In this document: piece after piece, positions 2 to 60,429 of the stretch
Layout: each line of letters begins with the position of its first letter
Numbering within the stretch: the first letter of the stretch is position 1
From: Eledone cirrhosa
Taxonomy: Eukaryota
Reading direction: 5' to 3'
Length of the DNA stretch: 64,000 bases
Assembly (NCBI GenBank): GCA_964016885.1
Contig: OZ024743.1
Coordinates: 58,218,001-58,282,000 of the forward strand
The notes under the pieces: generated by a model
What the model was told of the DNA's origin: nothing
Database searches by the model: none
The model's input: only the letters and a program-made list of their open reading frames with translations
Program-made: the position numbers and the translations under genes

Positions 2-2257
2 AGTATAGCTAGATCCGAACTTAGAAATATTATAGAACAATATAGCAAGAAGCATAATAGAATGGAGGCCCAGCAACTGGTAGAAAAATCTGCAAATGGC
101 TTGCGTAAGCTCATGCAGCGCTCACGTAATGGAGAGATAGCATGCTTTCCAACAGACAAGTCTGGCAGAATGTCGGTTGACAGCCTACCAAACTACATCC
201 AGGCAATGCAACCCCACATCACTAACACAAGATAGGTAACACCACAGGAGTATGAGGATAGAGAAAAAGCCCTTAATGCCCATATGGTGATGTGGACGAA
301 TATAATGCAGCCTAACAAAAGTACTGCCAACAACTTCCAGGCCTGGAACAATGACGTGCCGGTGTTGTATGGGCTTCGAAAAGACCATAAAACGAGCAGT
401 GACCCTGTCGCGGGACAGCCAACATGGCCAGTCTGTGGAGCTAACATTGCTAGTAACTACAGACTGTCCTACTTCCTCTCCCTGATCATACGCCCCATCA
501 TTGAAATGTCCCCAGATGTATGTGACAGCACGGAGGACCTCCTCAGCAGAATCGGCGTGAGTAACCGATCTAGGGACCTAACAAACTGCATAATAGGCAG
601 TATGGATGTTGTGTCCCTGTATCCATCTATTGACGTGGATTTTGCTGTGGAGAAATGCGTAGAAATGATCAGTGAGAGCAATGTTGAGTTCCGTGGGATT
701 GATACCAGTGAGCTGGGACGCCTACTTAAACTTACCTATAGTAATAATTACCTAGACACATATGACCTTAGCAACCTGTGCCCTACAAGACCAGCAAGAG
801 GCAGACCACCTACCATTACCTCAATGGCCAAGAAAACCTACACAGATAGATGGAACGGGTGGACCAGAGCCATACGGACACGCGAAAACCACGATGAACT
901 GAAGAAAATGATTGCACATGCGGTAGGGGCCAGCATAAAACTAACCCTTAAGGAACATATGTTCAAATTTAATGGAAAAACATATGCCCAAGAGCAAGGA
1001 GCAGCCATTGGTGTTAGCATTGCAGGCGACATAGCTAACTTATTCATGGTATGGTGGGACAGTAGACTTAAACTTAAACTTACAGAACAATTAGAAGACC
1101 CTTTAACCCTGATAATGTACTCCCGCTACGTTGATGATATAAACATCGTAGTTAAGACACCCCCACTAGAGAACAGTCAGGAACTAGAGAAAAACACAAT
1201 GGAAAGCATCCAGCAAATAGCAAACTCCATCCACCAGAGCATTAGAGTTACTATAGACTACCCAAGTATACACCCCAACCATCGATTACCTGTACTAGAC
1301 ACAGAGCTCTGGTTAGATACCATTAACAACAAAAAACAAATCCTCCATTCCCATTATGCCAAACCCATGACTTCCAAACATCTGATCCACCGAAACTCGG
1401 CCGTTTCGGACCATACCAAAATCAACATACTGATTGCGGATTTGGTACGGGTGATGAGAAACGTGTCCCGCATGTGCAACCCCGAAGAACTAGAGAGACA
1501 CATACAACACTTCATTCACCGTATGCAGTTCTCTGGCTACAATCAGAGAGATAAAATCAGAGTGTATAGAGGAGCCAGAACCAAATGGGAAAAAATGGTA
1601 AATAATGACATAAATGGGACCTGCCCCTTGTATAGAAGCAAATTTTGGAATAGAATAGAAAGAACTAGGAACAAGGCTAATAGAATAAACTCATGGTATG
1701 ATAGCAATAAATACCAGAGTGTAATGTTCATCGATACAACCCCTAGAGGTGAATTAGCTTACACATTTAGAAGGGCCCTAAATAAACATAAACTCAATAT
1801 TAAGATAGTAGAAAGACCAGGTACCTCCGTAAAAACACTTATTAGCAAGACATACCCTTTTCAAAGACCCTCATGTATAGATAAGAAATGTATAACCTGT
1901 AAAATAAGCCCCCATATTAACTGTAAAACTAGAAATGTACTGTATAGCATAAGATGTACTGAAGGACAATGTAGAGACAAAAATATAGTGTACATAGGTT
2001 ATACAGCTCGTAGTGTAGGGGAACGGATAAATGAACACTGGCGAGAGCTTCAAGATAGTAAAGAATCATCTGTACTCTACCAACATGCTAAAATAGAACA
2101 CAAGGGTAAATTAGAGAACATAGAAATAAAAATAGAATCTACACACAGAAAAGACGCAATGTTTAGACAAATTACAGAGGCAATAAACATAAAAGAATTA
2201 CAACCAAAATTAAATAGAAAACATGAGTGGAACAGCAACATCACAACTTACAATTAA
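2..2257 (+). pseudogene. Penelope-like element (PLE) polyprotein: RT + C-terminal GIY-YIG endonuclease; 5' end outside window; one in-frame TAG at 233-235
   Basis: Frame from nt 2 contains PTDKSG (PLE DKG-type motif) before the TAG. The 657-aa ORF has MDVVSLYPSI, QGAAIG, YSRYVDD, LPVLDT, a Cys-rich linker and VLY..YIG..R..EH..E..N (GIY-YIG). Confidence 0.9.
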
Positions 2258-9143: not shown

Positions 9144-11565
9144 AATATATTAGTTTTCGAGGTTTTTGATATGAAATCGTGTGTCGAAACAAATATTGTT
9201 ATACTTGGGGAGGGTCATATTTGTGTAATATTGCCAGAATGAATAACAGAACACACTCACTGTTTGGTTGGTTTTCGCTTTTCGCTTCTGCGTCTTTTAT
9301 ATCGGTTAATTTAATTTATTCGGTCCTCAATGTTGCCATTGACTGACCAACGGTCAAAAATACAGATACAATATAGACACAAACACATATATATAGTCTA
9401 TCAAAGTTCTGTCGCTTCACATCTGCAACATCGTCAGTGGTGCTATTGTTTCCTCCCGTTGCATTGTATGTCTACGCCATCTTTATTTAGTCTGTTTATA
9501 TATTTATTTATTTGTTTATTTTTTGTCTTCTTTGCGCATGCGTTTGCGTGTGTGTATAGTGTTTTGTTTGATGTGTGTTCGTGTTTGGGTGACTGTGTAT
9601 TCTATCTTTACTAGTGTGTGTTTATATGTGTTTGGTTTTATTCTGCTGGTGTATGTATTTATTTATTTATCCATTTATTTATTTATACTTCTCTTAGGTC
9701 AGTGTTGTTTGTATGGGTGTTGTTGTTATTCCATTCATTTTTTCTGTTCAGCCTTGGCCTTCTAACGTGAAGATCTACACCCAAAATGAGGGGGCAGCCA
9801 TTGGCGTCAGCATAGCTCGTGACGTTGCCAACCTTTTTATGGTATGGTGGGAAATGAGACTTAGAGAACTCCTTGATGAGAGCTCCATAGACCTCATCAT
9901 GTACTCTCGTTACGTAGACGATATCAATATAGTAATAAGAACATCCCCACAAGAGAGCACTAACACATTTGATTTAGAACGTAGCACAATGGAAAGCATC
10001 CAGCAGACAGCTAATTCCATACACCAGAGTATAACTGTAACTATCGACTACCCTTCCAAAAAACCTAACAATAGACTACCTGTATTAGACACGGAACTCT
10101 GGACTAACACTATAGACGAGAGAGCCCAAATTCTCCACTCACACTATGCTAAACCCATGGCCTCCAAATACCTGATAGTCAAAAACTCAGCAATGTCTAG
10201 TAGTGCTAAGTTTAATATTCTGATCGCAGACTTGGTACGAGTGATGAAGAACGTGTCCCGCATGTGCGACCCAACAGAAATGGAAAGATACATCCAACAC
10301 TTCATCAACCGCATGCAGTTCTCTTCCTACAACCAAAGAGACAGAATCAGAGTATACGAAGGAGCCACGGAGAAGTATAAGACCCTCATAGAACTAGTCA
10401 TGAAAGGAATTTGCCCATTATACAGGAGCAAATCATGGAATAGCTTAGATAGGACTAGACATAAGATAAGGAAAGCCACCTCATGGTACGACAAACAGAG
10501 ATACCAGAGTGTCATGTTTGTGGACGCTACCCCTGGAGGGAAATTAGCTAACCAGTGTAGAAAGGCTCTGAGAAAGACATACTTAAAGATTAAGGTGGTA
10601 GAAAAGCCAGGAACCACCATAAAATCCCTGATCAGCAAAACCTACCCTTTTAAGAAAACCCACTGTACTAATAGGAAATGTATCATATGTAAAGTAAACC
10701 CCCGGATACACTGTAAAACTAGAAACATAGTCTATAGCATAAGATGTACAGAGGGTACTTGCAGAAACATGACAACAACATACATGGGTGAGACAGCTCG
10801 TAGCATAGGTGAAAGGATAGACCAACACTGGGGGGAACTAAAAGGACGGAAAAACAGTTCAGTACTATACGAACATGCCAGACAACAACACGACGGTAAC
10901 ATAGACAGCATAGAAATTAGAATAATATCTAAACATAGAAATGACCCAGCAGATAGGCAAATCAGAGAGGCCAGTGAAATAGAACTTAGAAGGCCAAGGC
11001 TAAACAGAAAAAATGAATGGAATAAGAACAACACCCAAACAAACAACACTGACCTAAGAGAAGTATAAATAAATAAATGGATAAATAAATAAATACATAC
11101 ACCAGCAGAATAAAACCAAACACATATAAACACACACTAGTAAAGATAGAATACATTAACCAATACACAGTCACCCAAACACGAACACACATCAAACAAA
11201 ACACTATACACACACGCAAACGCGTGCGCAAAGAAGACAAAAAAATAAACAAATAAATAAATATATAAACAGACTAAATAAAGATAGCGTAGACATACAA
11301 TGCAACGGAGGAAACAATAGCACCACTGACGATGTTGCAGATGTGAAGCGAAAGAACTTTGATAGACTATATATATGTGTTTGTGTCTATATTGTATCTG
11401 TATTTTTGACCGTTGGTCAGTCAATGGCAACATTGAGGACCGAATAAATTAAATTAACCGATATAAAAGACACAGAAGCGAAAACCGAACACCAACCAAA
11501 CAGTGAGTGTGTTCTGTTATTCATTCTGGCAATATTACACACATATGACCCTCCCCAGTTATAAC
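9143..11565 (+). mobile_element. 5'-truncated PLE with an inverted copy of its own 3' end (arms ~9198-9765 and ~10986-11565)
   Basis: ORF from ~9766 to 11068 is homologous to the PLE at 2-2257 (EGAAIG, YVDD, LPVLDT, IVY..YMG). An inverted pLTR at the truncated 5' end is a known PLE hallmark. Confidence 0.9.
9766..11068 (+). pseudogene. PLE RT (C-terminal half) + GIY-YIG endonuclease, 5'-truncated, no internal stops
   Basis: ORF 9713-11068 of the track; its first ~17 codons derive from the inverted arm. Confidence 0.85.
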
Positions 11566-16010: not shown

Positions 16011-16078
16011 TATGCAGAGTCATTCAACTTTAATCCCCACAAATGGCTTCAAGTCAACTTTGATTGTTCATCAATGTG
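16011..16078 (+). CDS. DDC: DDC/AADC-like gene 1, internal exon carrying the PLP-binding lysine ([23 protein letters not shown])
   Basis: ttttccag|...|gtgagt; 68 nt; NPHK motif of group II decarboxylases. Earlier exons were not found in 1-16010. Confidence 0.93.
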
Positions 16079-18091: not shown

Positions 18092-18182
18092 GATAAAAGA
18101 CTGTCGAAACATCAGCCAAGCCTTTTCTGTTGATCCAGTTTATTTGAAACACGAGAATGAAGGAATTATGCCAGATTACAGA
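18092..18182 (+). CDS. DDC: DDC-like gene 1 exon, catalytic loop (W|IKDCRNISQAFSVDPVYLKHENEGIMPDYR)
   Basis: tatag|G...AGA|gtatga; 91 nt; completes the split Trp codon; DPxYLKH and PDYR motifs. Confidence 0.92.
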
Positions 18183-22188: not shown

Positions 22189-22287
22189 CACTGGCATGTA
22201 CCATTAGGAAGGCGTTTCAGAGCCTTGAAACTCTGGTTCGTTTTACGACTGTATGGTATCAAAAGACTGCAAGAAATTATAAGAAGG
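22189..22287 (+). CDS. DDC: DDC-like gene 1 exon ([33 protein letters not shown])
   Basis: caaag|...|gtaagt; 99 nt; PLGRRFR.LK.WF signature. Confidence 0.95.
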
Positions 22288-23906: not shown

Positions 23907-24008
23907 GACATAAAATTGGCTGTAGAATTCAAGAAGTTGATTGAAGCTGACGCAAGGTTCGAACTCTTTGGTGAAGTTAAAATGAGCCTCGTTTGCTTTC
24001 GTTTAAAG
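23907..24008 (+). CDS. DDC: DDC-like gene 1 exon (DIKLAVEFKKLIEADARFELFGEVKMSLVCFRLK)
   Basis: gcttag|...|gtaagt; 102 nt; D.RFE and LVCFRLK motifs. Confidence 0.95.
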
Positions 24009-27041: not shown

Positions 27042-27257
27042 GGCGGCAACGAAAATAATGAAGATCTAGTGAAAGAGATAAACAAAGATGGCCGTATCCA
27101 TTTGGTACCATCGAAATGTGGCGATATATTCTTCCTTCGCTTTTCTGTCTGCACTAATCGTACGACATCTGAAGACGTGCAACATGCTTACAAAGTTATC
27201 ACAGAAATAGTAGAGAAAATATTGCAAAAGTCTCGAATATCGTTGGATTCCAAATGA
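27042..27257 (+). CDS. DDC: DDC-like gene 1 terminal coding exon (GGNENNEDLVKEINKDGRIHLVPSKCGDIFFLRFSVC...SK*)
   Basis: tcacag|GGC..TGA; matches the AADC C-terminal domain (IN..G.IHLVP, F.LRF.VC). Confidence 0.95.
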   Translation, partial: GGNENNEDLVKEINKDGRIHLVPSKCGDIFFLRFSVCTNRTTSEDVQHAYKVITEIVEKILQKSRISLDSK

Positions 27258-32334: not shown

Positions 32335-34665
<2,331 letters not shown>

Positions 34666-46648: not shown

Positions 46649-50670
<4,022 letters not shown>

Positions 50671-50878: not shown

Positions 50879-51082
50879 ATGGAAAATACTGTCACATTCC
50901 AGGCTGCAACTCTCCAATTAGTGAAATATATCTCTGATTATTTTGAAAATATTCGAAGCAGAAATGTATATCCTGCAGTTGAACCTGGGTTCATGCGAAA
51001 TCTTATCCCAACTGAAGCTCCAGAAGCCGCTGATGATTGGGAAGATGTTTTTAGTGACATCGAAAACGTAATTATGCCGGGG
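50879..51082 (+). CDS. DDC/AADC-like gene 2, first coding exon (MENTVTFQ..DYFENIRSRNVYPAVEPGFMR.LIP..AP...IMPG)
   Basis: ATG...CCGGGG|gtaagt; 204 nt; AADC N-terminal motifs. A possible acceptor (ttcttttgaag) lies 6 nt upstream of the ATG. Confidence 0.93.
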
Positions 51083-51496
51083 GTAAGTTACCGATATTCT
51101 AAGTACATTATTAAAGTAGTTTTGATTCTTTTATTATGTTGTTCTTTACGGCCTTCCGTCATAATACTGCAGCCATGCTGCTGTTCAGCTCTGAAGGGAT
51201 TTAATAAATCATATCGACTCCAGTACATATTCTGAAGATTGGTACTTATTATATTGAACCGCGTAATCAAACGATGCTCGTAAACACATACACATAGATA
51301 TGTACGTATGCATGTTTGTAAGTCAACAGCTGCCACATCTATACTATTAATAATGGTTTGTAATGTAGGCACAAGGCTAGCAATTTGGGTGCAAGGGAAA
51401 GTCGATCAAATCGGCCCCAGTGCGTGACGTTGTTTTACCGACCCCGTAACGATGAATGGCAAAGTTAATCTCGTCGGGATTTAACATCAATGACAG

Positions 51497-51541
<45 letters not shown>

Positions 51542-51983
51542 TGTGTGTGTGTAAGTCAGTGGCGTGTGTGTGATTGTTTGTATGCATGAGTGTTTGTGTG
51601 TGTGTCGTATGTATGAGTGTCACTAAGTGACTGTTTTTTCATGAGCGGGCACGGGCACATAGAAATAATTATTTCTATTTAGCTCGATTATAATCAGGCT
51701 GAATACTCGATCACGTGGTTAAACCACTGGTAGTGAAGGACACCTAGCCTTTGTCAGGGCATTCTTCTAGGAGAAGGCAACTCATGAAACTGGGATAACT
51801 CCGACACGAAACCTGCGGTTACCGATGATGTTGATCTTTTCTTCTTTTCGGGTTATAGCTACTGTCGCTCAGAGAGTGGGATTGGCTCAGTGCACAGTCT
51901 TTCCTCACTTTAAATATAATTTTCACGCACAGGCATTGCAGGATAGAATTAATAATTATTAATAGTATTATTATTATTATTAT

Positions 51984-54900
51984 TGGTCTGATCGGATGTC
52001 TTTTTGCTTGCTCCCAGTAAGTCGCTTTACTTTCCTGTTATAATTATTTCTTGCTAAATTTGTTCTTGTTGTGTAAGGGATATAAGCCCTTGGACTTTGC
52101 CCTGTGACGGGGAAAGTATAATAGTTATGCCTTTTGGCCCAAATATTTGACCATTTTATTTTAAAAAGTATAAATAAAAAAACATGGCGGATCCACGTCC
52201 CCCAGCAATATGCCTGCTGTCGTGTGACAACGGCGTAAAAGTTGAGAGGGGGGGGTTACAGAAATTGATGCAACAAGCACCACCACAAACAACGTGAACA
52301 AAGACAGCAATGACAACAACACTGAGGACACTAATTTAAAAAAAAATTACGACACCAACTACAACAATAACAGCGACAACCAAAATACAGACAACAGAAA
52401 AAAATGACAACAAATGCAACAACGATATTAACGCCACTAACAAGAAAACAAACAACGACAACGCCAACATCGACAATATAAATTGCACCGAGAACAACAA
52501 GAACGGTGGCAGCAAAAAGACAACCCAACTACAACAGTGGCAACAGCAACAATACCAACAACACCGTTTGTAGCAGTAGCAACAGCAACAGCACCAACAA
52601 CATGACCAGTAGTAGCAGTAGCGGCAGCAATAATGGTGCCGCTGAAAAAGGGAGCACTTCTTTCAAATGTGTGGCCCGAAATATAGAAACAGTGCTAGTC
52701 ACGGAAGAGGAGATGGCAGTCACAAGGGCCACGGTGACAAGAAATGACGATAGAGTTTCCCTGAAACTTCCACCCGATTTTTTCAAGGACCAGCAGCTAC
52801 GGAAGGTGACTTACCGCACCGGAAGCAAAATGTCACATCGGGTGAAGAGAGCCACGGAGGCTCAAATCCAAAAGGCCTTGGGGTGCGTAGGGTGCGCAAA
52901 ACTCACATCACCCTAGGAAAAAAGTATGCCACAGTAGACGTACATTTCGCCACACCGCAAGAGGCGAAGTCTAACTCTTTGGAAACCCTAAAGAGTGAGG
53001 AGATAGTCTTGGTGCCCTCCTACTGCGGACAGAAAATTGTGAGGGTCAAAGTGAACCAGGTCCCGCCCGACGTGCCCATCCCATGGCTGGCCGCATCTGT
53101 CCTTGCTGGAAGCGAGGACTGGACCACCATACTGCAAATGCAGAGAATGGGAAGAGAGAACTGGTCAGGTATAGGCATGCAAATGCTAATACAAACTGAT
53201 CAGGAGTGTATCGAGGCCATCCCAGATATCATAGACCTCTAAACAGGACACCAACTCCCCAGAAGCATGGACGGAAGGCGCCCAAAGTGCTATCTCTGGG
53301 GCAAAAGGGTCACTCAGGGCCTTTTGCCCGCAGAAGACAGTCAAAAAGAGGCCCCCCCCCTCCTTCCGACGCCTGATCTGCTGCTACCAAGAGCAGGACA
53401 GGAAACAGAGGCAGAAGACCCTTCCATGGTGAGTAGGAGGGCAACGTCTGTGGCAACATACCAAGGCCACGGACAACACCAACAGTCGCAGTGGCTACAC
53501 CGGCGGAAAAATCGCCGGAGCGGGCTCCACTACCATCACCAACAGCAGTGAAGCTCATACCCCTCCCAGACGCCATGGAATCCAACATGGAGTATGAGGC
53601 GCGATGGAAGTGGCAAACGGTCTGTCACAAAAAAATAGAAAAAAGAAAAAACCCTTAGCTTCACCCTCCAAAAGCGAAGGCAAACAAAGAGGGGTAAAGG
53701 ATGCAAGGAGACTTGCAGCAACACCACAAGCATCACCACCACAAGCATCACCACCAACAACAACCACACCATCACCAGCATCACCAAAAACATCAACATC
53801 GCAAACACAACAAAGCACACACACCCAACAGCAACAACAAGAAAGCAACAACAAAACCACCACTCCCCCAACAAGTACACAGCATAAACATGGTAAATAA
53901 AGAACTCTTATAACCTATAAAGCAGCACACAGACATCACAGAAAAAAATTACTACACCCCACCAACACCAAGAACTCTCCAGAAAAATATAAAGATTATT
54001 GACATCAAAGTAGAACATTATAAACATTTAAAAGGAAAATTCCCCAACGCAGTTGGAGATTTCTGAGGGTCGGTTACCAAGAGGATATACACCGACATCA
54101 TCTTGGAAACACCCATGACCAGCCAAAGGGGCGGTTCGACTGTCCCTTTCCCACACGATCAGGGTAGGTGATCCTTTCTCCATAACTCCATTCCTCACGC
54201 AACCTGGCCTTACTGGCAGTATAAATGGCCTGGAGTCATCTTGCAAGCAGGGCCACCTGTTTAACGATCTCAGGTCACTAAACATAGATGTGGTGGCCAT
54301 CAGCGAGAACAGAATTTCCGCCTTCGCACCGATCTTCGGCGGCTACGATGTATACGCATCTCCAAGCCGTCCAGGATCGGGGGGAGGAGTTGCTGTGCCT
54401 TTTCGGGGAGGCCTGGATCTCGCCATACGGGCCATCTTCCTGAACCCAGAAGGTAAGTCGGTGGTGCTGGACGTGACCGGCAGCGAAGGCTAGTAGCCGT
54501 TTACGCCCCAAATGGGGCAGGACGGCCAGATTTCTTCAGACGTCTAGAGACCTTTCTTGGAACGTCCCGCTCTTTAGTGTTAGTGGGCGACTGGAACGGT
54601 ATCTTAGATGCGCGCTGGGATTATGTGGGGGTTATAGACGGGGCAGGAGGGTGTAAAAGCCTCAACAATCTGATCAGACGTTTTGAACTGTCTGACAGGT
54701 ATAGGCTGGATTATCCGAATGTGGCAATGTGGACATGAGCAAACCGCATCGGGTCATCCAGATCGTATTTAGATAGGGTATTCTGTAGGGAAACAGATAA
54801 GGCTAGTGTAGGTTGTCCATATTTTAAAGTAGTCGACTACACGGATCACGGAATTTGTGATCTGTGAAGTTGACTTATATAGACTACACAGGAAAGGGCC

Positions 54901-57738
54901 CGGTTACTGGAAGCTGAACGCGTCGTTCCCGGCGCGTAAAGTTTACAGAGACCGGATTAACGAATTAGTTAAGCGTGCGTTGACGGGTGCGATCGTCAAT
55001 AATAGGTGGTGGTTTACCCTGAAAAGGGCTATTATAGTAGAATCCATGAGGTTTAGCAAAGGAGTAGTGATAGAAGAAAAAAGAGTAGATGGAGAGTTAG
55101 TTAGAAAGCTAGAAGAGGCGTTTAGAACAGGCATCGTAACCGACGTGCTTGCGGCGAGATTGGCACTCGACCAATTCTTTAACGCAAAGCATGAAGGCTG
55201 CGTTGTCAGAGCTAGAGCGCGTGCTAAAAGACACGATGGGACGAAAGCCGTTCAATGGGCCCGGGCGGTGGAGGCGCGACGTGGCAATAAGTACACTATT
55301 CGGTCTTTGCCTGATCAAAACGGGCGCATGTTGCTCGAACCCGAGCAGATGTGTGCGGCTTTTCAACAGCACTTTGCTCAATTGTTCGGGAGCGGCGACG
55401 GGCCGGTTCGGAGTATGGACTTCGGTGCATACCTCGATGGACTGCTGCAGCTCTCGACGACTGCAGCGCAGTTCTGCAAAAAGCTGAAAATAGCAGGTGA
55501 AATACTGGAAGCGATGTCTGACTGCACGAGGGAGCATTCCCAGTTTTATGAGCCGGGAGCGGTGGCCTGCTGAGAAAAGACCCGAACAAGGGGGACGTTA
55601 TAGAAAACTTCAGGACCATAACTCTGCTAGACACAGAGTTTAAGATTTTGGCAAAGGTGTTAGCAAAGAGATTGGCGCTTGTCGTCGGTGATCTGGTGGG
55701 AGAGGCGCAGACATGCGCTATTCCGGACAGATCCATCCACGGCAACCTCCATATCATGCGATACATCATAGAGAGGGGGGTTAAGGAACCTGGCACGGGT
55801 GGGGCCTTGATAAACTTGGATCAATCTAAAGCATTTGATAGGGTCGATCATCGGTACCTGGCTGCGGTCCTCGAAGCGGCTGGCTTCGGGCCCGTTTTTA
55901 GGGGCTGGATCGCTGCGATGCACAGCGACATCTGCTCGGTTGTGAGGGTGAATGGTCACATGTCGCAGCCTTTGAGCATCATGCGTCGGTCCGCCAGGGT
56001 TGTCCCCTCTCGTCCCTCTTGTACATACTGGCCCTCGAGCCGTTACTGCACAAATTGGAGTCGATGAGGGGGGTCCCACGCGAACTGGGATCGGGAGATC
56101 CGTGTTAGCTTACGCCGACGATGTCACCGTGGTAGTGTCGAGCACCAAACAGGTCCAGATGCTCGGCACCGCTCTCAAGGAATACGAAGCCGTGACAGGA
56201 ACAAAGATAAATCAGGAAAAGTCGGTGGCCTTGCAATACTGCACCTCAAGAGGCAAGTCAATGCCGTCCGACAGCGTCTTAGGGCGCTGGACAGAAGGAC
56301 CGGTTAAGTTGCTGGGGTTCTGGTTCTGTCCGGACCTCTAGACGTAGAAAAACTGGAGCGAGGTGACGAGCAGGGTGGCCTCACTCACTCAGAAATGGTC
56401 CGAGAGGAGGTTGTCTCTGAAAGATCGGGCAGGGGTGGAGAATGCGTACATCGCGTCCGTCATCTGCTACCGCCTGACCGTCGTACCTTGCCCGCCCAAC
56501 TCTGACCAAAATGGAGCGCCTGCTCTTCCGCTTTTTATGGAAGGGACGTGCTCCCATGATCAGACGATCCATTTGCTGTCAACACCCGTTGCGTGGAGGA
56601 CTAGCATGCCGTGGCAGATGTGGCGCAAACATGCGCTGAGGCGGCTACATCTCTGGTGCTTCCTTGACGGTGAACAGGTGTGTTCGCCTTTTGCCAGACG
56701 CACTTTTCCCCAGCTCGTCTCCTTGGCGGAGCTGAAGTCCTGGACCAGGAAAAGACCGAGGGATAGCGGCTGGAAGCTGGAATGTCTCCAAGCGCTCAAC
56801 ACCCTCTACCAGGTGGGCACTAGTATCAGTGGAACATCCACCTCGGCGTTCTATAGAGGGCTAGTGGAGGGAAAGTGCGACGACGTTCTCGGGGAGACAC
56901 TGGGCGCCGAAGACGATCAGCTGTTCGCTCTCTTCAAGAGAATTTCAGCCCAGGGCCTATGGACAACTACCAGAAATCCCTGGCCTGGCAGTGCTACCGC
57001 GGAGCGTTGCCAGTTCGGGATAAGCTCTACAGGCACGGAGGTGCTGTCAGCCGATCCTGTCCGAGATGCGCACAGGGCGACGAAACCATCCTGCACGCAA
57101 TCGTTCAGTGCCTGAGGATTGCTGACTTGTAGAGCTTTTGTCGAACAGCTTCTTCCCGTGTAGGACGGATCCGGTTATCGACTGAGTCCATTGTGCAGAT
57201 AGCCCCGCTATTCTCCTTTAAAGAGGAGGAAGCGCAGGCAGTTTTCATCTGTCTGGTGGTCATGGCGAAAGAGATTGGGTGGTGGACAAGTTTGAAAGGG
57301 TTGAAGACGGACACTCTCCTCTACGGCTAATCCCTGATTAACTTTTTCAAGTTTCACTTGAAGAGGAAAATCAGGGTGGAGATGCAAGTGCTGTCTTCTA
57401 GTAAGGCTGTTGAAAGGTGGGTGAAAGTGGCGAGTCTGGTCCGATTGAACTGGCCCGCACTGAGTATGCGTGGGAAAACTGAGAGAGGGCACTTGCCCTG
57501 GTGGTCAGGGTGGGCGTGGTCTTTTTGTGTGGGTTTCGCCACGAGTGGCCCTCGGATGTTTCCCCCTTTTGGGGGAAGTTTTGATGTTTGAATTTTTTTT
57601 TTATTTCTCGCCCGATTTTGTTATAACCTGTTTACACGAACAAAACCCACTTTGTATCGTCCTGTACTGTTCTGTGTCGTCTCTAATGTTTTTCTTCATG
57701 TTAGTTCTTGTGGCCAATAAAGAAACCATTATTATTAT
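51984..57738 (+). mobile_element. Near full-length, disrupted L1/Tx1-type LINE (ORF1 ~52184-54118 with CCHC-like knuckle; ORF2 APE-RT ~54170-57480), in intron 1 of gene 2
   Basis: GDWN, SYLDR, TDH, GPGYWKLN, FRTITLLD, LDQSKAFDRV, YADD, CPRC..E..H...C; ends AATAAA-GAAA-(ATT)n. Confidence 0.9.
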
Positions 57739-57739
57739 T

Positions 57740-58238
57740 TCCCGAGCATTGCTGACTTATGGAGCTACGTCGAACAGTTGCTGTCTCGTGTAGGACTGAT
57801 CCGTTATCGACTGAGTCCATTGTGCAGATGGTCTCGCCGTCTTCCTTCGAAGAGGAAGGGCAAGCGGTTTTCATCTGCCTGGTGGCCATGATGAAAGAGA
57901 TTGTGTGGTGGACAAGGTTGACAGGGTTAAAGACAGACACTTTCCTCTTCGGCGAATCCCTAATTAACCTTTTCAAGTTTCACTTGAAGAGGAACATCAG
58001 GGTGGAGAGGCAAGTGCTGCCTTCTATAAGTTTGTTGAAAGGTGGGTGAATGTAGCGAGAATGGTCCGAGTGAACGGGACCGCTCTGAATATACGCCTGT
58101 AGTTTAAGAAATGGAAACATTGAGAGAGAGCCGCACAAAACCCACATCGTACCGTCCTGTACGGTCCTCTGCTGTCTGAACTGTTTTTCTTGATGTCAGC
58201 CCTGGTGGCCAATAAAGAAATCATTATTATTATTATTG
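57740..58238 (+). mobile_element. Second, 5'-truncated copy of the same LINE
   Basis: Repeats the ORF2 C-terminus (STESIVQ..FICLVAM..FKFHLKR) and the GTGGCCAATAAAGAAA-(ATT)n end. Confidence 0.85.
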
Positions 58239-58239
58239 T

Positions 58240-59517
58240 TCTTTGAGTCTCTACTACCTCCTGACCGTCGCACCTTGTCCTAATCCCCGCTTGATTGCGC
58301 TGGAGCGTTTGCTCTTTCGCTTTTTGTGGAAGGGACGCGCTCCGATGGTCAGGCGGTCCATCTGCTGTCAACACCCGCTACGTGGAGAGCTGGGCATGCC
58401 GTGGCTGATGACGCGCAGACACGCGCTACGACATCTCCACCTCTTCCTCGACGGTGATCAGGTATGGTCGCCGTTTGCTAGACACGTCTTTCCCCAGCTC
58501 GTCTCCTTAACGGAGCTGCAGTCCTGGGTCAAGCGAAGACAGAGAGGGAGCGCTTGGAGACTGGAATGTCTTCAGGCGCTCACAGCCCTCGACCAATCGG
58601 GCAATGTGATCGGTGGAAACTCCACCTTGGCGTTCTATAGAGGATTAGTGGAGGGGAAGAGCGACGACGTACTTGGAGACAATCTAGGCGTCGACGAAAA
58701 TCAACTAACCAATCTCTTCGGAAGGACTTTCGGGCCGGAGCCTATGGACAACTTCGAGTAATCCCTGGCCTGGCAGTGCTACCGAGGAGCTTTGCCAGTT
58801 CGGGATAAACTCTACAGGCATGGAGGTGCCGTCAGCCAGGCATGTTCGATATGCGTGCAGGCCGACGAAACCGTCCTGCACGCACTCGTCCAGTGTCCGA
58901 GCATTGTTGACTTGTGGGTTTATGTCGAACACCTGCTGTCACGTGTAGGACGGATCCAGCTATCAGCTGAGTCCATCGTGAGGATTGCCCCGCCCTCTTC
59001 CTTTAGCCGGGAAGGGCAGGCAGTTTTTATCTGTCTGGTGGCCATGGCGAAAGAGATAGTATGGTGGACACGTTTCAAAGGGCTGAAGACGAGCACTTAC
59101 CTCTTCGGTGATGCCCTGATTAACTTTTTCAAATTTCATTTGAAAAGGAAAATCAGAGTAGAGAGGGAAGTGCTCTCTTCCCAGCATTTTGTTGAAAGAT
59201 GGGTGAGAGAAGCAAGTATGGCCCGAGTGAATGGGCCTACTCTGAGTATGTGTCTGTAAATTAAAGGTGGAAAACTGGGTGAGGGCACTTGCCCTGGTGG
59301 TCAGGGTCACTGTGGTCTTTTAATGGGCTTTCTCCACAAATGTCCCTCGGAAGTCTCCTCCCTATTGGGGAATTTTTCTTTGTTATTTTATTTCATCCTC
59401 TTTTTTTTTTTACACGCAGAAATGCCCATTTGTACCGTCCTGTATTGTTCTGTACTGTCCTTAATGTCTACTTTATGTAAACCCTTGTGGTTAATAAAGA
59501 AAACATTATTATTATTA

Positions 59518-59560
<43 letters not shown>
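58240..59560 (+). mobile_element. Third, 5'-truncated copy of the same LINE
   Basis: ORFs 58243-58761 and 58792-59259 match the ORF2 C-terminus; AATAAAGAAAAC-(ATT)n tail. Confidence 0.88.
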
Positions 59561-59561
<1 letters not shown>

Positions 59562-59821
59562 TTTTTTTTTGGTTCGTGCAATGGCCATAATCGATAACGT
59601 GGGGAAAGACATGTATGTATGCATGTCAGCTCACTCTTGAGTGCTGCAGGTAGAATGTAACCCAGTACAACCTGTTGCCCCCACCAAGTTTACTTGGTGC
59701 GGAGTATATTTTGGACAGCCTGCAGGACAAAAAATAAAAAAACGGACTATGTGTGTATGTATATATGTATATACATGTATACATATGTATATATATATAT
59801 ATGCGCGGGGACATAGAAATA

Positions 59822-60260
59822 ATTATTTGAATATGGCAAAGTCGACTATTAATCGCTCGTATACAGGAAACTGACTGGGCAGTCTGCTGATATGCAAATC
59901 TGGCTGATCAGTGGATCTGCTAATATGCAGATGTGACTGATCAGACAGTCTGCTAATATGCAAATCAGGCTGATCTGTCACTGAATATTTTAGAAAATAT
60001 TATATAGTTTCACTAGCTCTGAAAATTGGCAGGTGAACAGTGAGCTGTACTGATGAAGGGTAATACCCAGAAACATTAGTGTCTGCAGTTCTGTTTACAT
60101 GCCAACGCAAGAGCAAGAATAAGGTGTTCATTCTACTGACATTGCTTTAAAAATGAGACTTGTATGCATAATTGCAAACGAATCGAATATTATTATTAAT
60201 ATTCAAAAAACTCAGATTACATTTATTGTATTCAGCCATGTAGAGCGAGAAAAAACATTT
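59822..60260 (+). mobile_element. HHR-bearing ~430-nt repeat (retrozyme-like), copy 2
   Basis: Homologous to 21581-21985 with the segments in swapped order. Confidence 0.65.
60042..60091 (+). ncRNA. Type I hammerhead ribozyme motif
   Basis: GAGCTGTA-CTGATGA-A-GGGT AAT ACCC-A-GAAAC-ATTAGT-GTC-TGCAGTTC; 8-bp stem I, GTC site, A.A at the base of stem II. Confidence 0.72.
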
Positions 60261-60315
60261 TTTTAATAGTACACCTAATAACTGCAAATATTAAACTTTG
60301 ATTTTCACCCAACAG

Positions 60316-60429
60316 CTATGCCACTGGCAACATCCGAACTTCGCTGCCTACTTCCCATCACAAACATCGCATGCTGCAATTCTGGCAGAAATGCTCTCGA
60401 GTGCATTGGCGAATGTAGTAATATCTTGG
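60316..60429 (+). CDS. DDC/AADC-like gene 2, second coding exon (LCHWQHPNFAAYFPSQTSHAAILAEMLSSALANVVISW); gene continues beyond the window
   Basis: aacag|...TGG|gtgagt; 114 nt, phase 0; HW.HP.F.AYFP motif. Confidence 0.92.

Follow-up and report, generated by a model that had tools for sequence, protein, structure and literature searches.

The window analysed here is a stretch of 64,000 nucleotides from Eledone cirrhosa (G000:C4:58218001-58282000), and a Pfam scan together with exon searches placed four DDC-family genes in approximately 220 kb of this region. Judged from their sequences, gene A is a canonical DDC and gene B is the second of four in a tandem cluster. The genes are arranged as follows (contig coordinates; all from the Pfam scan and exon searches):

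C4 58183483-58245257, plus strand: gene A
C4 58268879-58315429, plus strand: gene B
C4 from 58377866 to about 58323200, minus strand: gene D
C4 58403396-58380536, minus strand: gene C

The features of genes A and B that concern us here are given below in window coordinates, except for the part of gene B that extends beyond the window:

16011..16078, plus strand: gene A exon 8, with the NPHKW PLP motif (gene model)
18092..18182, plus strand: gene A exon 9, with the catalytic-loop tyrosine (gene model)
22189..22287, plus strand: gene A exon 10 (gene model)
23907..24008, plus strand: gene A exon 11 (gene model)
27042..27257, plus strand: gene A exon 12, with the stop codon (gene model)
50879..51082, plus strand: gene B exon 1, the first coding exon counted from its ATG, 68 aa (exon search, gene model)
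51083..60315, plus strand: gene B intron 1, 9233 nt, with a broken LINE-like retroelement (RVT_1 and zf-RVT pieces)
60316..60429, plus strand: gene B exon 2, pocket loops 1 and 2 (AG/GT borders, open frame, PF00282 match)
60349..60363, plus strand: codons Y79 F80 P81 S82 Q83, canonical Y F P T A/G (residue alignment)
60412..60423, plus strand: codons N100 V101 V102 I103, canonical C I G F (residue alignment)
G000:C4:58282726-58315429, plus strand: gene B exons 3-12, outside the window (gene model)

The models of genes A to D are homology-based predictions made without RNA. Each gene has 12 coding exons with identical phases, and 11 of the 11 introns are of the GT-AG type. The predicted proteins of A, B and C have 483, 496 and 481 aa, respectively, and the reading frame of gene D stays open until it meets a stop 97 codons into exon 12. 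Neither stops nor frameshifts were found in the B, C or D models, and the full coding sequence of gene B could be assembled from its 12 exons without any broken splice site. Gene A shares 90% identity with Octopus DDC and 87% with its Argonauta counterpart; for gene B, identity is 53% with A and 64% with both C and D. An alignment of exon 3 against the genome gave five matches among 10 candidates, namely the four cluster genes and one match on C7.

Additional family members were observed elsewhere in the genome, including an HDC-like gene (G000:C7:11827658-11881600) and a TDC-like gene (G000:C6:75658900-75661400), both as partial exons that resemble a named HDC and a named TDC, respectively. 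Further partial exons on C8 and elsewhere on C4 have a motif by which we take them to be GAD-like. The cluster also contains traces of mobile elements. LINE-like remains (RVT_1, zf-RVT) lie at approximately 52750-59260 (+) of the window, in intron 1 of gene B, with kindred pieces in introns of A and C, and a broken Helitron (Helitron_like_N matches) is located at 47731-48836 (-), about 2 kb 5' of the gene B start codon. Within gene A or behind it, three long open frames, at 236-2254 (+), 9698-11065 (+) and 32852-34480 (-), are probably retroelement remains; RVT_1 matches the first one weakly (E 6e-4), and the other two match nothing in Pfam.

Exon 2 of gene B (window 60316-60429, +) is a 114-nt phase-0 exon flanked by AG and GT, and the reading given in a preliminary description of this DNA (YFPSQ, an end in SSALANVVISW, intact splice sites and frame) was confirmed on the sequence. 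The exon scored 27.5 bits against the PF00282 profile (cut-off 27), which further gene B exons also match, and it matched 16 PDB decarboxylase sequences. As the ruler for human numbering we used the O. sinensis DDC P0002, which aligns without gaps to chain 3rbf (residues 1-478). On this ruler, gene B carries T82S, A83Q, C100N, I101V, G102V and F103I, and the four substitutions that had been named earlier (G>V, F>I, C>N and T>S) are all right. Their placement in the substrate pocket also agrees with the literature, as excerpts of PMC8003434 describe I101, the neighbouring Phe (F103) and T82 as contacting the catechol ring of carbidopa.

The frequency of these residues was examined in a homologue search in which 7993 candidates were scored and the best 120 listed. 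Among these 120, nine rows, all from Octopus, belonged to the subfamily described below, and the newly listed non-subfamily rows numbered 108. The canonical residues were almost universal in these 108 matches (F103 in 108/108, G102 in 106/108 and C100 in 103/108). Since I103, V102 or N100 was present in none of the 108 non-subfamily matches listed, the pocket changes go beyond chance. On the other hand, T82S is not unusual (5/108 of the same matches, and also plant PDB chains), and I101V was found in 3/108. Genomic contigs of runs X1-X3, which may come from the assembled sample, cover exon 2 with 0 differences; these contigs extend through introns and the runs are thus DNA. They argue against an assembly error as the origin of the exon 2 substitutions, and no more than that. 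The run search listed these three and no RNA run, an outcome that is neutral as to expression.

The remodelled pocket had been described for one gene. It is real in gene B but not unique to it, as it was also found in two more paralogues of the same genome and in three Octopus species. By alignment, genes B, C and D share it, and among the matches listed it was found in octopuses only. Homologue searches recovered same-pocket proteins from O. bimaculoides, O. sinensis and O. vulgaris, and NVVISW or TDVISW was present in 11 of the 134 proteins that include the motif region (275 proteins in all), all 11 of them from Octopus. Such entries, e.g., XP_014775469.1, XP_014775473.1, XP_014775474.1, XP_036356876.1 and CAI9719284.1, are listed in the database as 'aromatic-L-amino-acid decarboxylase(-like)'. 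They belong to the same subfamily and have the same pocket motif as gene B, with no more than 68% identity to it; they differ from B in that they keep H302, they have automatically been named as ordinary AADC, and they are not one-to-one orthologues of B or D. Two models in this set deserve caution: P0275 (CAI9719283.1), a 900-aa O. vulgaris model in which a divergent copy is fused to a canonical DDC, looks faulty, and P0006 (XP_036356878.1), an O. sinensis isoform, appears to combine parts of two paralogues. With exon 1 of gene B alone as the query, a homologue search gave no match (8 candidates), and the matches from a search of 50% representatives were mostly single-exon fragments. P0126, an unnamed exon-1 fragment of 80 aa that does not include the pocket exon, is slightly nearer B and C than A and may belong to the subfamily in another octopod.

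We compared seven subfamily proteins (genes B, C and D plus four Octopus paralogues, approximately 55-76% identical for most pairs) with 104 canonical proteins of 440-530 aa. Among 162 positions at least 95% conserved in the canonical set, 92 are kept and 26 are lost in all seven. W71, H192, D271, K303, Y332, G354 and R355 are kept in 7/7; the loss of the PLP lysine, K303, was thus found neither in B nor in any other member. A148, S149, R347, H348, F309 and D310 are lost in 7/7, position 300 has changed from Asn to Ser in six of the seven, and the new residues fixed in all seven include V102, I103, A111 and C353. G102V, F103I and L353C distinguish the subfamily (7/7) from the other matches listed (0/108), none of which has V102, I103, N100, S300, Q302, T347, C353 or P356. 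Positions lost in all seven are enriched in the active site (7/20 vs 19/142 elsewhere; one-sided Fisher p 0.022), a value to be read with the fact that the 20-position list was drawn from papers after the alignment had been seen.

Beyond the window, gene B carries R347T, H348N, L353C, N300S and H302Q. It is without the canonical loop-3 latch and phosphate ligands, having N345, T347, N348, S300 and Q302 where canonical enzymes have D345/R347/H348 and N300/H302, and without the canonical aromatic pocket of I101-G102-F103, T82 and L353, which is V-V-I, S82 and C353 in B. H302Q, next to the PLP lysine (motif SPQKW; exon 8, G000:C4:58303572-58303574), is found in gene B only and in 0/108 of the other matches listed. 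An assembly error is unlikely here, because the Gln302 codon is also present in a run X1 DNA contig of another haplotype, which shows 3 differences from the assembly in 271 positions, although the run may be from the assembled sample. At position 101, Asp replaces Ile in gene D (exon 2, G000:C4:58375077-58375190) and in the Octopus paralogue x3 (P0274/P0012); as these two are not orthologues, convergence towards a polar or basic substrate is possible. In gene D, the otherwise conserved Trp349 has become Met (exon 10, G000:C4:58336283-58336381) and Ser is found at 272. A Tyr332-to-Phe aldehyde-synthase switch in gene D was considered and rejected, as the Phe concerned is at position 346.

To place the subfamily, we built a quick tree of 46 rows and a careful one of 22 rows; the latter left out the probably chimeric P0006, the HDC and TDC rows and most of the distant DDCs. 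In the quick tree, HDC and TDC formed separate clades. In the 22-row tree, support for the subfamily as a clade was 100/100. It branched within the cephalopod DDC group, which also had 100/100 support and took in one unnamed protein, and its sister was octopod DDC, with Argonauta among the members (93/88); this placement suggests that the duplication is older than the Argonauta split. The subfamily stem measured 0.68 substitutions per site versus 0.095 for DDC (approximately sevenfold), and because of this long stem the attachment point should be taken loosely. B, C and D clustered together (98/99). AU tests rejected one-to-one orthology of B with O. bimaculoides x2 (p 3.5e-6) and of D with x3 (p 9.7e-5), and did not reject that of C with x1 (p 0.08). 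These results imply that, in each lineage independently, the copies either multiplied or underwent homogenisation. Such a pattern would fit gene turnover as well as it fits stable new functions.

Selection was estimated in several ways. Pairwise NG86 omega over 480 codons was 0.40 for B-C, 0.51 for B-D and 0.64 for C-D, with bootstrap intervals below 1, and comparisons with gene A were near saturation. A one-ratio ML omega of approximately 0.4-0.47 for B, C and D was about 38 log units better than omega=1. A custom free-ratio codon model (468 codons) gave 0.24 for B, 0.43 for C, 0.55 for D and approximately 0.09 for the path to A. Under both topologies, omega=1 was rejected for B (p 1.8e-9 and 0.009) and for D (p 0.014 and 0.012); for C it was rejected in one of the two (p 0.13 in the other). 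Gene B is the most constrained of the three, and its branch, with an omega of approximately 0.24 and not near 1, is under purifying selection.

An AlphaFold2 model of O. bimaculoides P0272, the nearest named relative of B (68% identical), had a pLDDT of 92.5 and matched human AADC 8ORA with a TM of 0.97. Since the modelled chain is a single subunit, from a relative and not from B itself, and the pocket forms between subunits, the model is silent on pocket shape. A fold prediction from a 6-row alignment reached a pLDDT of 38.

Gene B has descended from cephalopod DDC through a burst of change on the subfamily stem followed by purifying selection. By profile and residues, with the Schiff-base Lys303, Asp271 and the ring-stacking His192 kept, the subfamily would be classed as a group II decarboxylase, and it fails the residue tests for a canonical DDC, an aldehyde synthase, an HDC or a TDC. 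We consider the chance about even that gene B is a neofunctionalised PLP decarboxylase whose predicted substrate is other than DOPA or 5-HTP. The neofunctionalisation put forward in the preliminary description is partly supported, by the intact gene, the PLP lysine, an omega well below 1 and the subfamily-wide pocket changes, and its substrate part rests on residue chemistry. By analogy with DDC structures, K303 would hold the PLP; after the loss of CO2, Y332 and H192 would protonate the carbanion and the amine would be released. The side-chain pocket (101-103, 353) would be built by the partner subunit. With its phenylalanine wall lost, and beta-branched residues and a cysteine gained, this pocket would accommodate catechol and indole rings poorly. 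A smaller hydrophobic substrate, such as a branched-chain amino acid, methionine or unhydroxylated phenylalanine, is our guess from residue chemistry alone, and the Asp101 copies might accept a polar or basic side chain. In plant AAADs, a few pocket changes are enough to switch substrates, according to excerpts of 10.1101/404970. B itself may be slow, since N300S and H302Q are located at the PLP phosphate.

What counts against reading B as a decarboxylase is that it is altered at R347, L353, N300, H302 and C111, all of which are hit in impaired mammalian DDC mutants. The sections of PMC8003434 available to us report that L353 is linked with F103 and R347, that G102S raises Km approximately 11-fold and lowers kcat approximately 6-fold, that R347Q/G and L353P are catalytic mutations with DDC activity nearly abolished, and that activity falls and half-transamination appears with H192Q, D271E, N300A and H302Q, none of the four being essential. 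C111A also lowers the activity of mammalian DDC (parts of PMC8003434 and PMC12443470), and loop 3, which positions Y332, is stabilised by R347 and L353 (part of PMC12443470). Because several changes in B cut mammalian DDC activity, weak activity or altered chemistry stays alive as a reading.

In the altered-chemistry version, which we hold to be unlikely, the changed loop-3 latch (R347, H348, D345) and phosphate contacts (A148, S149, N300, H302) let a side reaction dominate, and oxidative deamination, half-transamination or Pictet-Spengler cyclisation yields aldehydes or cyclic adducts. Excerpts of PMC8003434 are consistent with this, as mammalian H302Q and N300A half-transaminate and G102S and L353P yield Pictet-Spengler adducts, and aldehyde synthases have evolved from the same fold in insects and plants (parts of PMC12078590 and 10.1101/404970). 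However, both known switches are absent, with H192 and Y332 kept in 7/7, and B has Y79-F80, the decarboxylase-type pair in the available part of PMC12078590. Alternatively, the copies could be PLP-binding pseudoenzymes, DDC-modulating partners or birth-and-death duplicates under relaxed selection. B combines many changes that are damaging in mammalian DDC, among them the H302Q that no other member has, the omega values of C and D are high, and copies turn over between lineages; nevertheless, the bond-making K303, D271, H192 and Y332 are kept in all seven in spite of the low identity of most pairs, B has an omega of 0.24, and B, C and D are free of stops and frameshifts, so that non-catalytic or decaying copies appear quite improbable.

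We give similarly little credence to an unchanged job, in which aromatic amino acids would remain the substrates of the copies, for instance to supply a gland with serotonin or tyramine in bulk, and the changes at 102, 103, 347 and 353 would offset each other. B keeps W71, Y79, F80, G354 and R355, the interaction of F103, L353 and R347 in DDC makes a joint change conceivable (PMC8003434, in part), and serotonin is abundant in octopus saliva (PMC4760938, in part). Against this, F103 and G102 are nearly invariant in the other matches listed (108/108 and 106/108), the genome already has canonical DDC, HDC-like and TDC-like genes, and the available part of the O. vulgaris salivary-gland proteome table includes a TDC-like protein and nothing under the name aromatic decarboxylase.

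The same proteome bears on the proposal that a changed enzyme could matter for salivary or venom amines, which received no support here. Octopus saliva contains serotonin and other amines (excerpts of PMC4760938). The O. vulgaris posterior salivary gland proteome includes a protein 54% identical to C. elegans TDC-1 (excerpts of PMC7693380), and the portion of its table that we searched has 0 matches to 'aromatic' and no DDC-like entry. This single weak datum points away from the link. In the accessible text of the literature on octopus gland, venom, ink, gonad, white body and brain, no DDC paralogue is mentioned, and term searches of the available parts of PMC12607849, 10.64898/2026.04.09.716377, PMC7656900, PMC6522055, PMC11191162, PMC11202624 and PMC10142993 gave no description of the subfamily. 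It is thus apparently undescribed so far, within a literature search that fell short of most subscription papers and of preprint supplements.

The pockets of animal DDC, TDC and HDC are nearly invariant, and a well-studied offshoot, insect DHPAA synthase, alters the catalytic histidine and not the pocket. A conserved, fast-evolved subfamily with the catalytic set kept and the pocket rebuilt suggests a so far undescribed pathway for amines or aldehydes. It also offers a natural experiment on G102, F103, R347, L353 and H302, at which substitutions cause or model human AADC deficiency. For octopus neurobiology, several AADC-named database entries are not safe markers of dopamine or serotonin unless checked. 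More speculatively, benthic octopuses might have a private DDC branch making amines unmade by known animal AADC, aliphatic ones by the Val/Ile-walled copies and polar or basic ones by the Asp101 copies that arose in two lineages. We regard this as doubtful; if true, such amines would represent an unrecognised signalling or secretion chemistry.

Among known systems, animal DDC/AADC (human 3RBF/8ORA, Drosophila 3K40) represents the parent gene, and B has the same 12-exon layout as its neighbour A. The subfamily resembles these enzymes in the predicted fold (relative P0272) and in keeping K303, D271, H192 and Y332. It differs from them in G102V, F103I, L353C and I101V/D, in R347T/M and the loss of H348, in the changes at A148 and S149, in N300S (6/7) and, in B only, in H302Q. 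In Drosophila, amd adjoins Ddc. Insect DHPAA synthase/alpha-methyldopa resistant protein (6JRL) and the plant aromatic aldehyde synthases are, like the octopus copies, DDC-family paralogues with an altered active site, and the loops with 103 and 353 have been implicated in DHPAAS as well (PMC12078590, in part). Excerpts of PMC12078590 and 10.1101/404970 show that aldehyde synthases arise by His-to-Asn or Tyr-to-Phe changes, and these features are absent from the octopus copies, in which 192 is His and not Asn and 332 is Tyr and not Phe in 7/7. The insect and plant enzymes keep F103/L353 and change H192 or Y332, whereas the octopus copies do the reverse. HDC and TDC are, again, DDC-family enzymes whose substrates differ through pocket changes, as is predicted for the octopus copies; however, they form separate clades and have Ser354, whereas Gly354 is present in all seven octopus copies.
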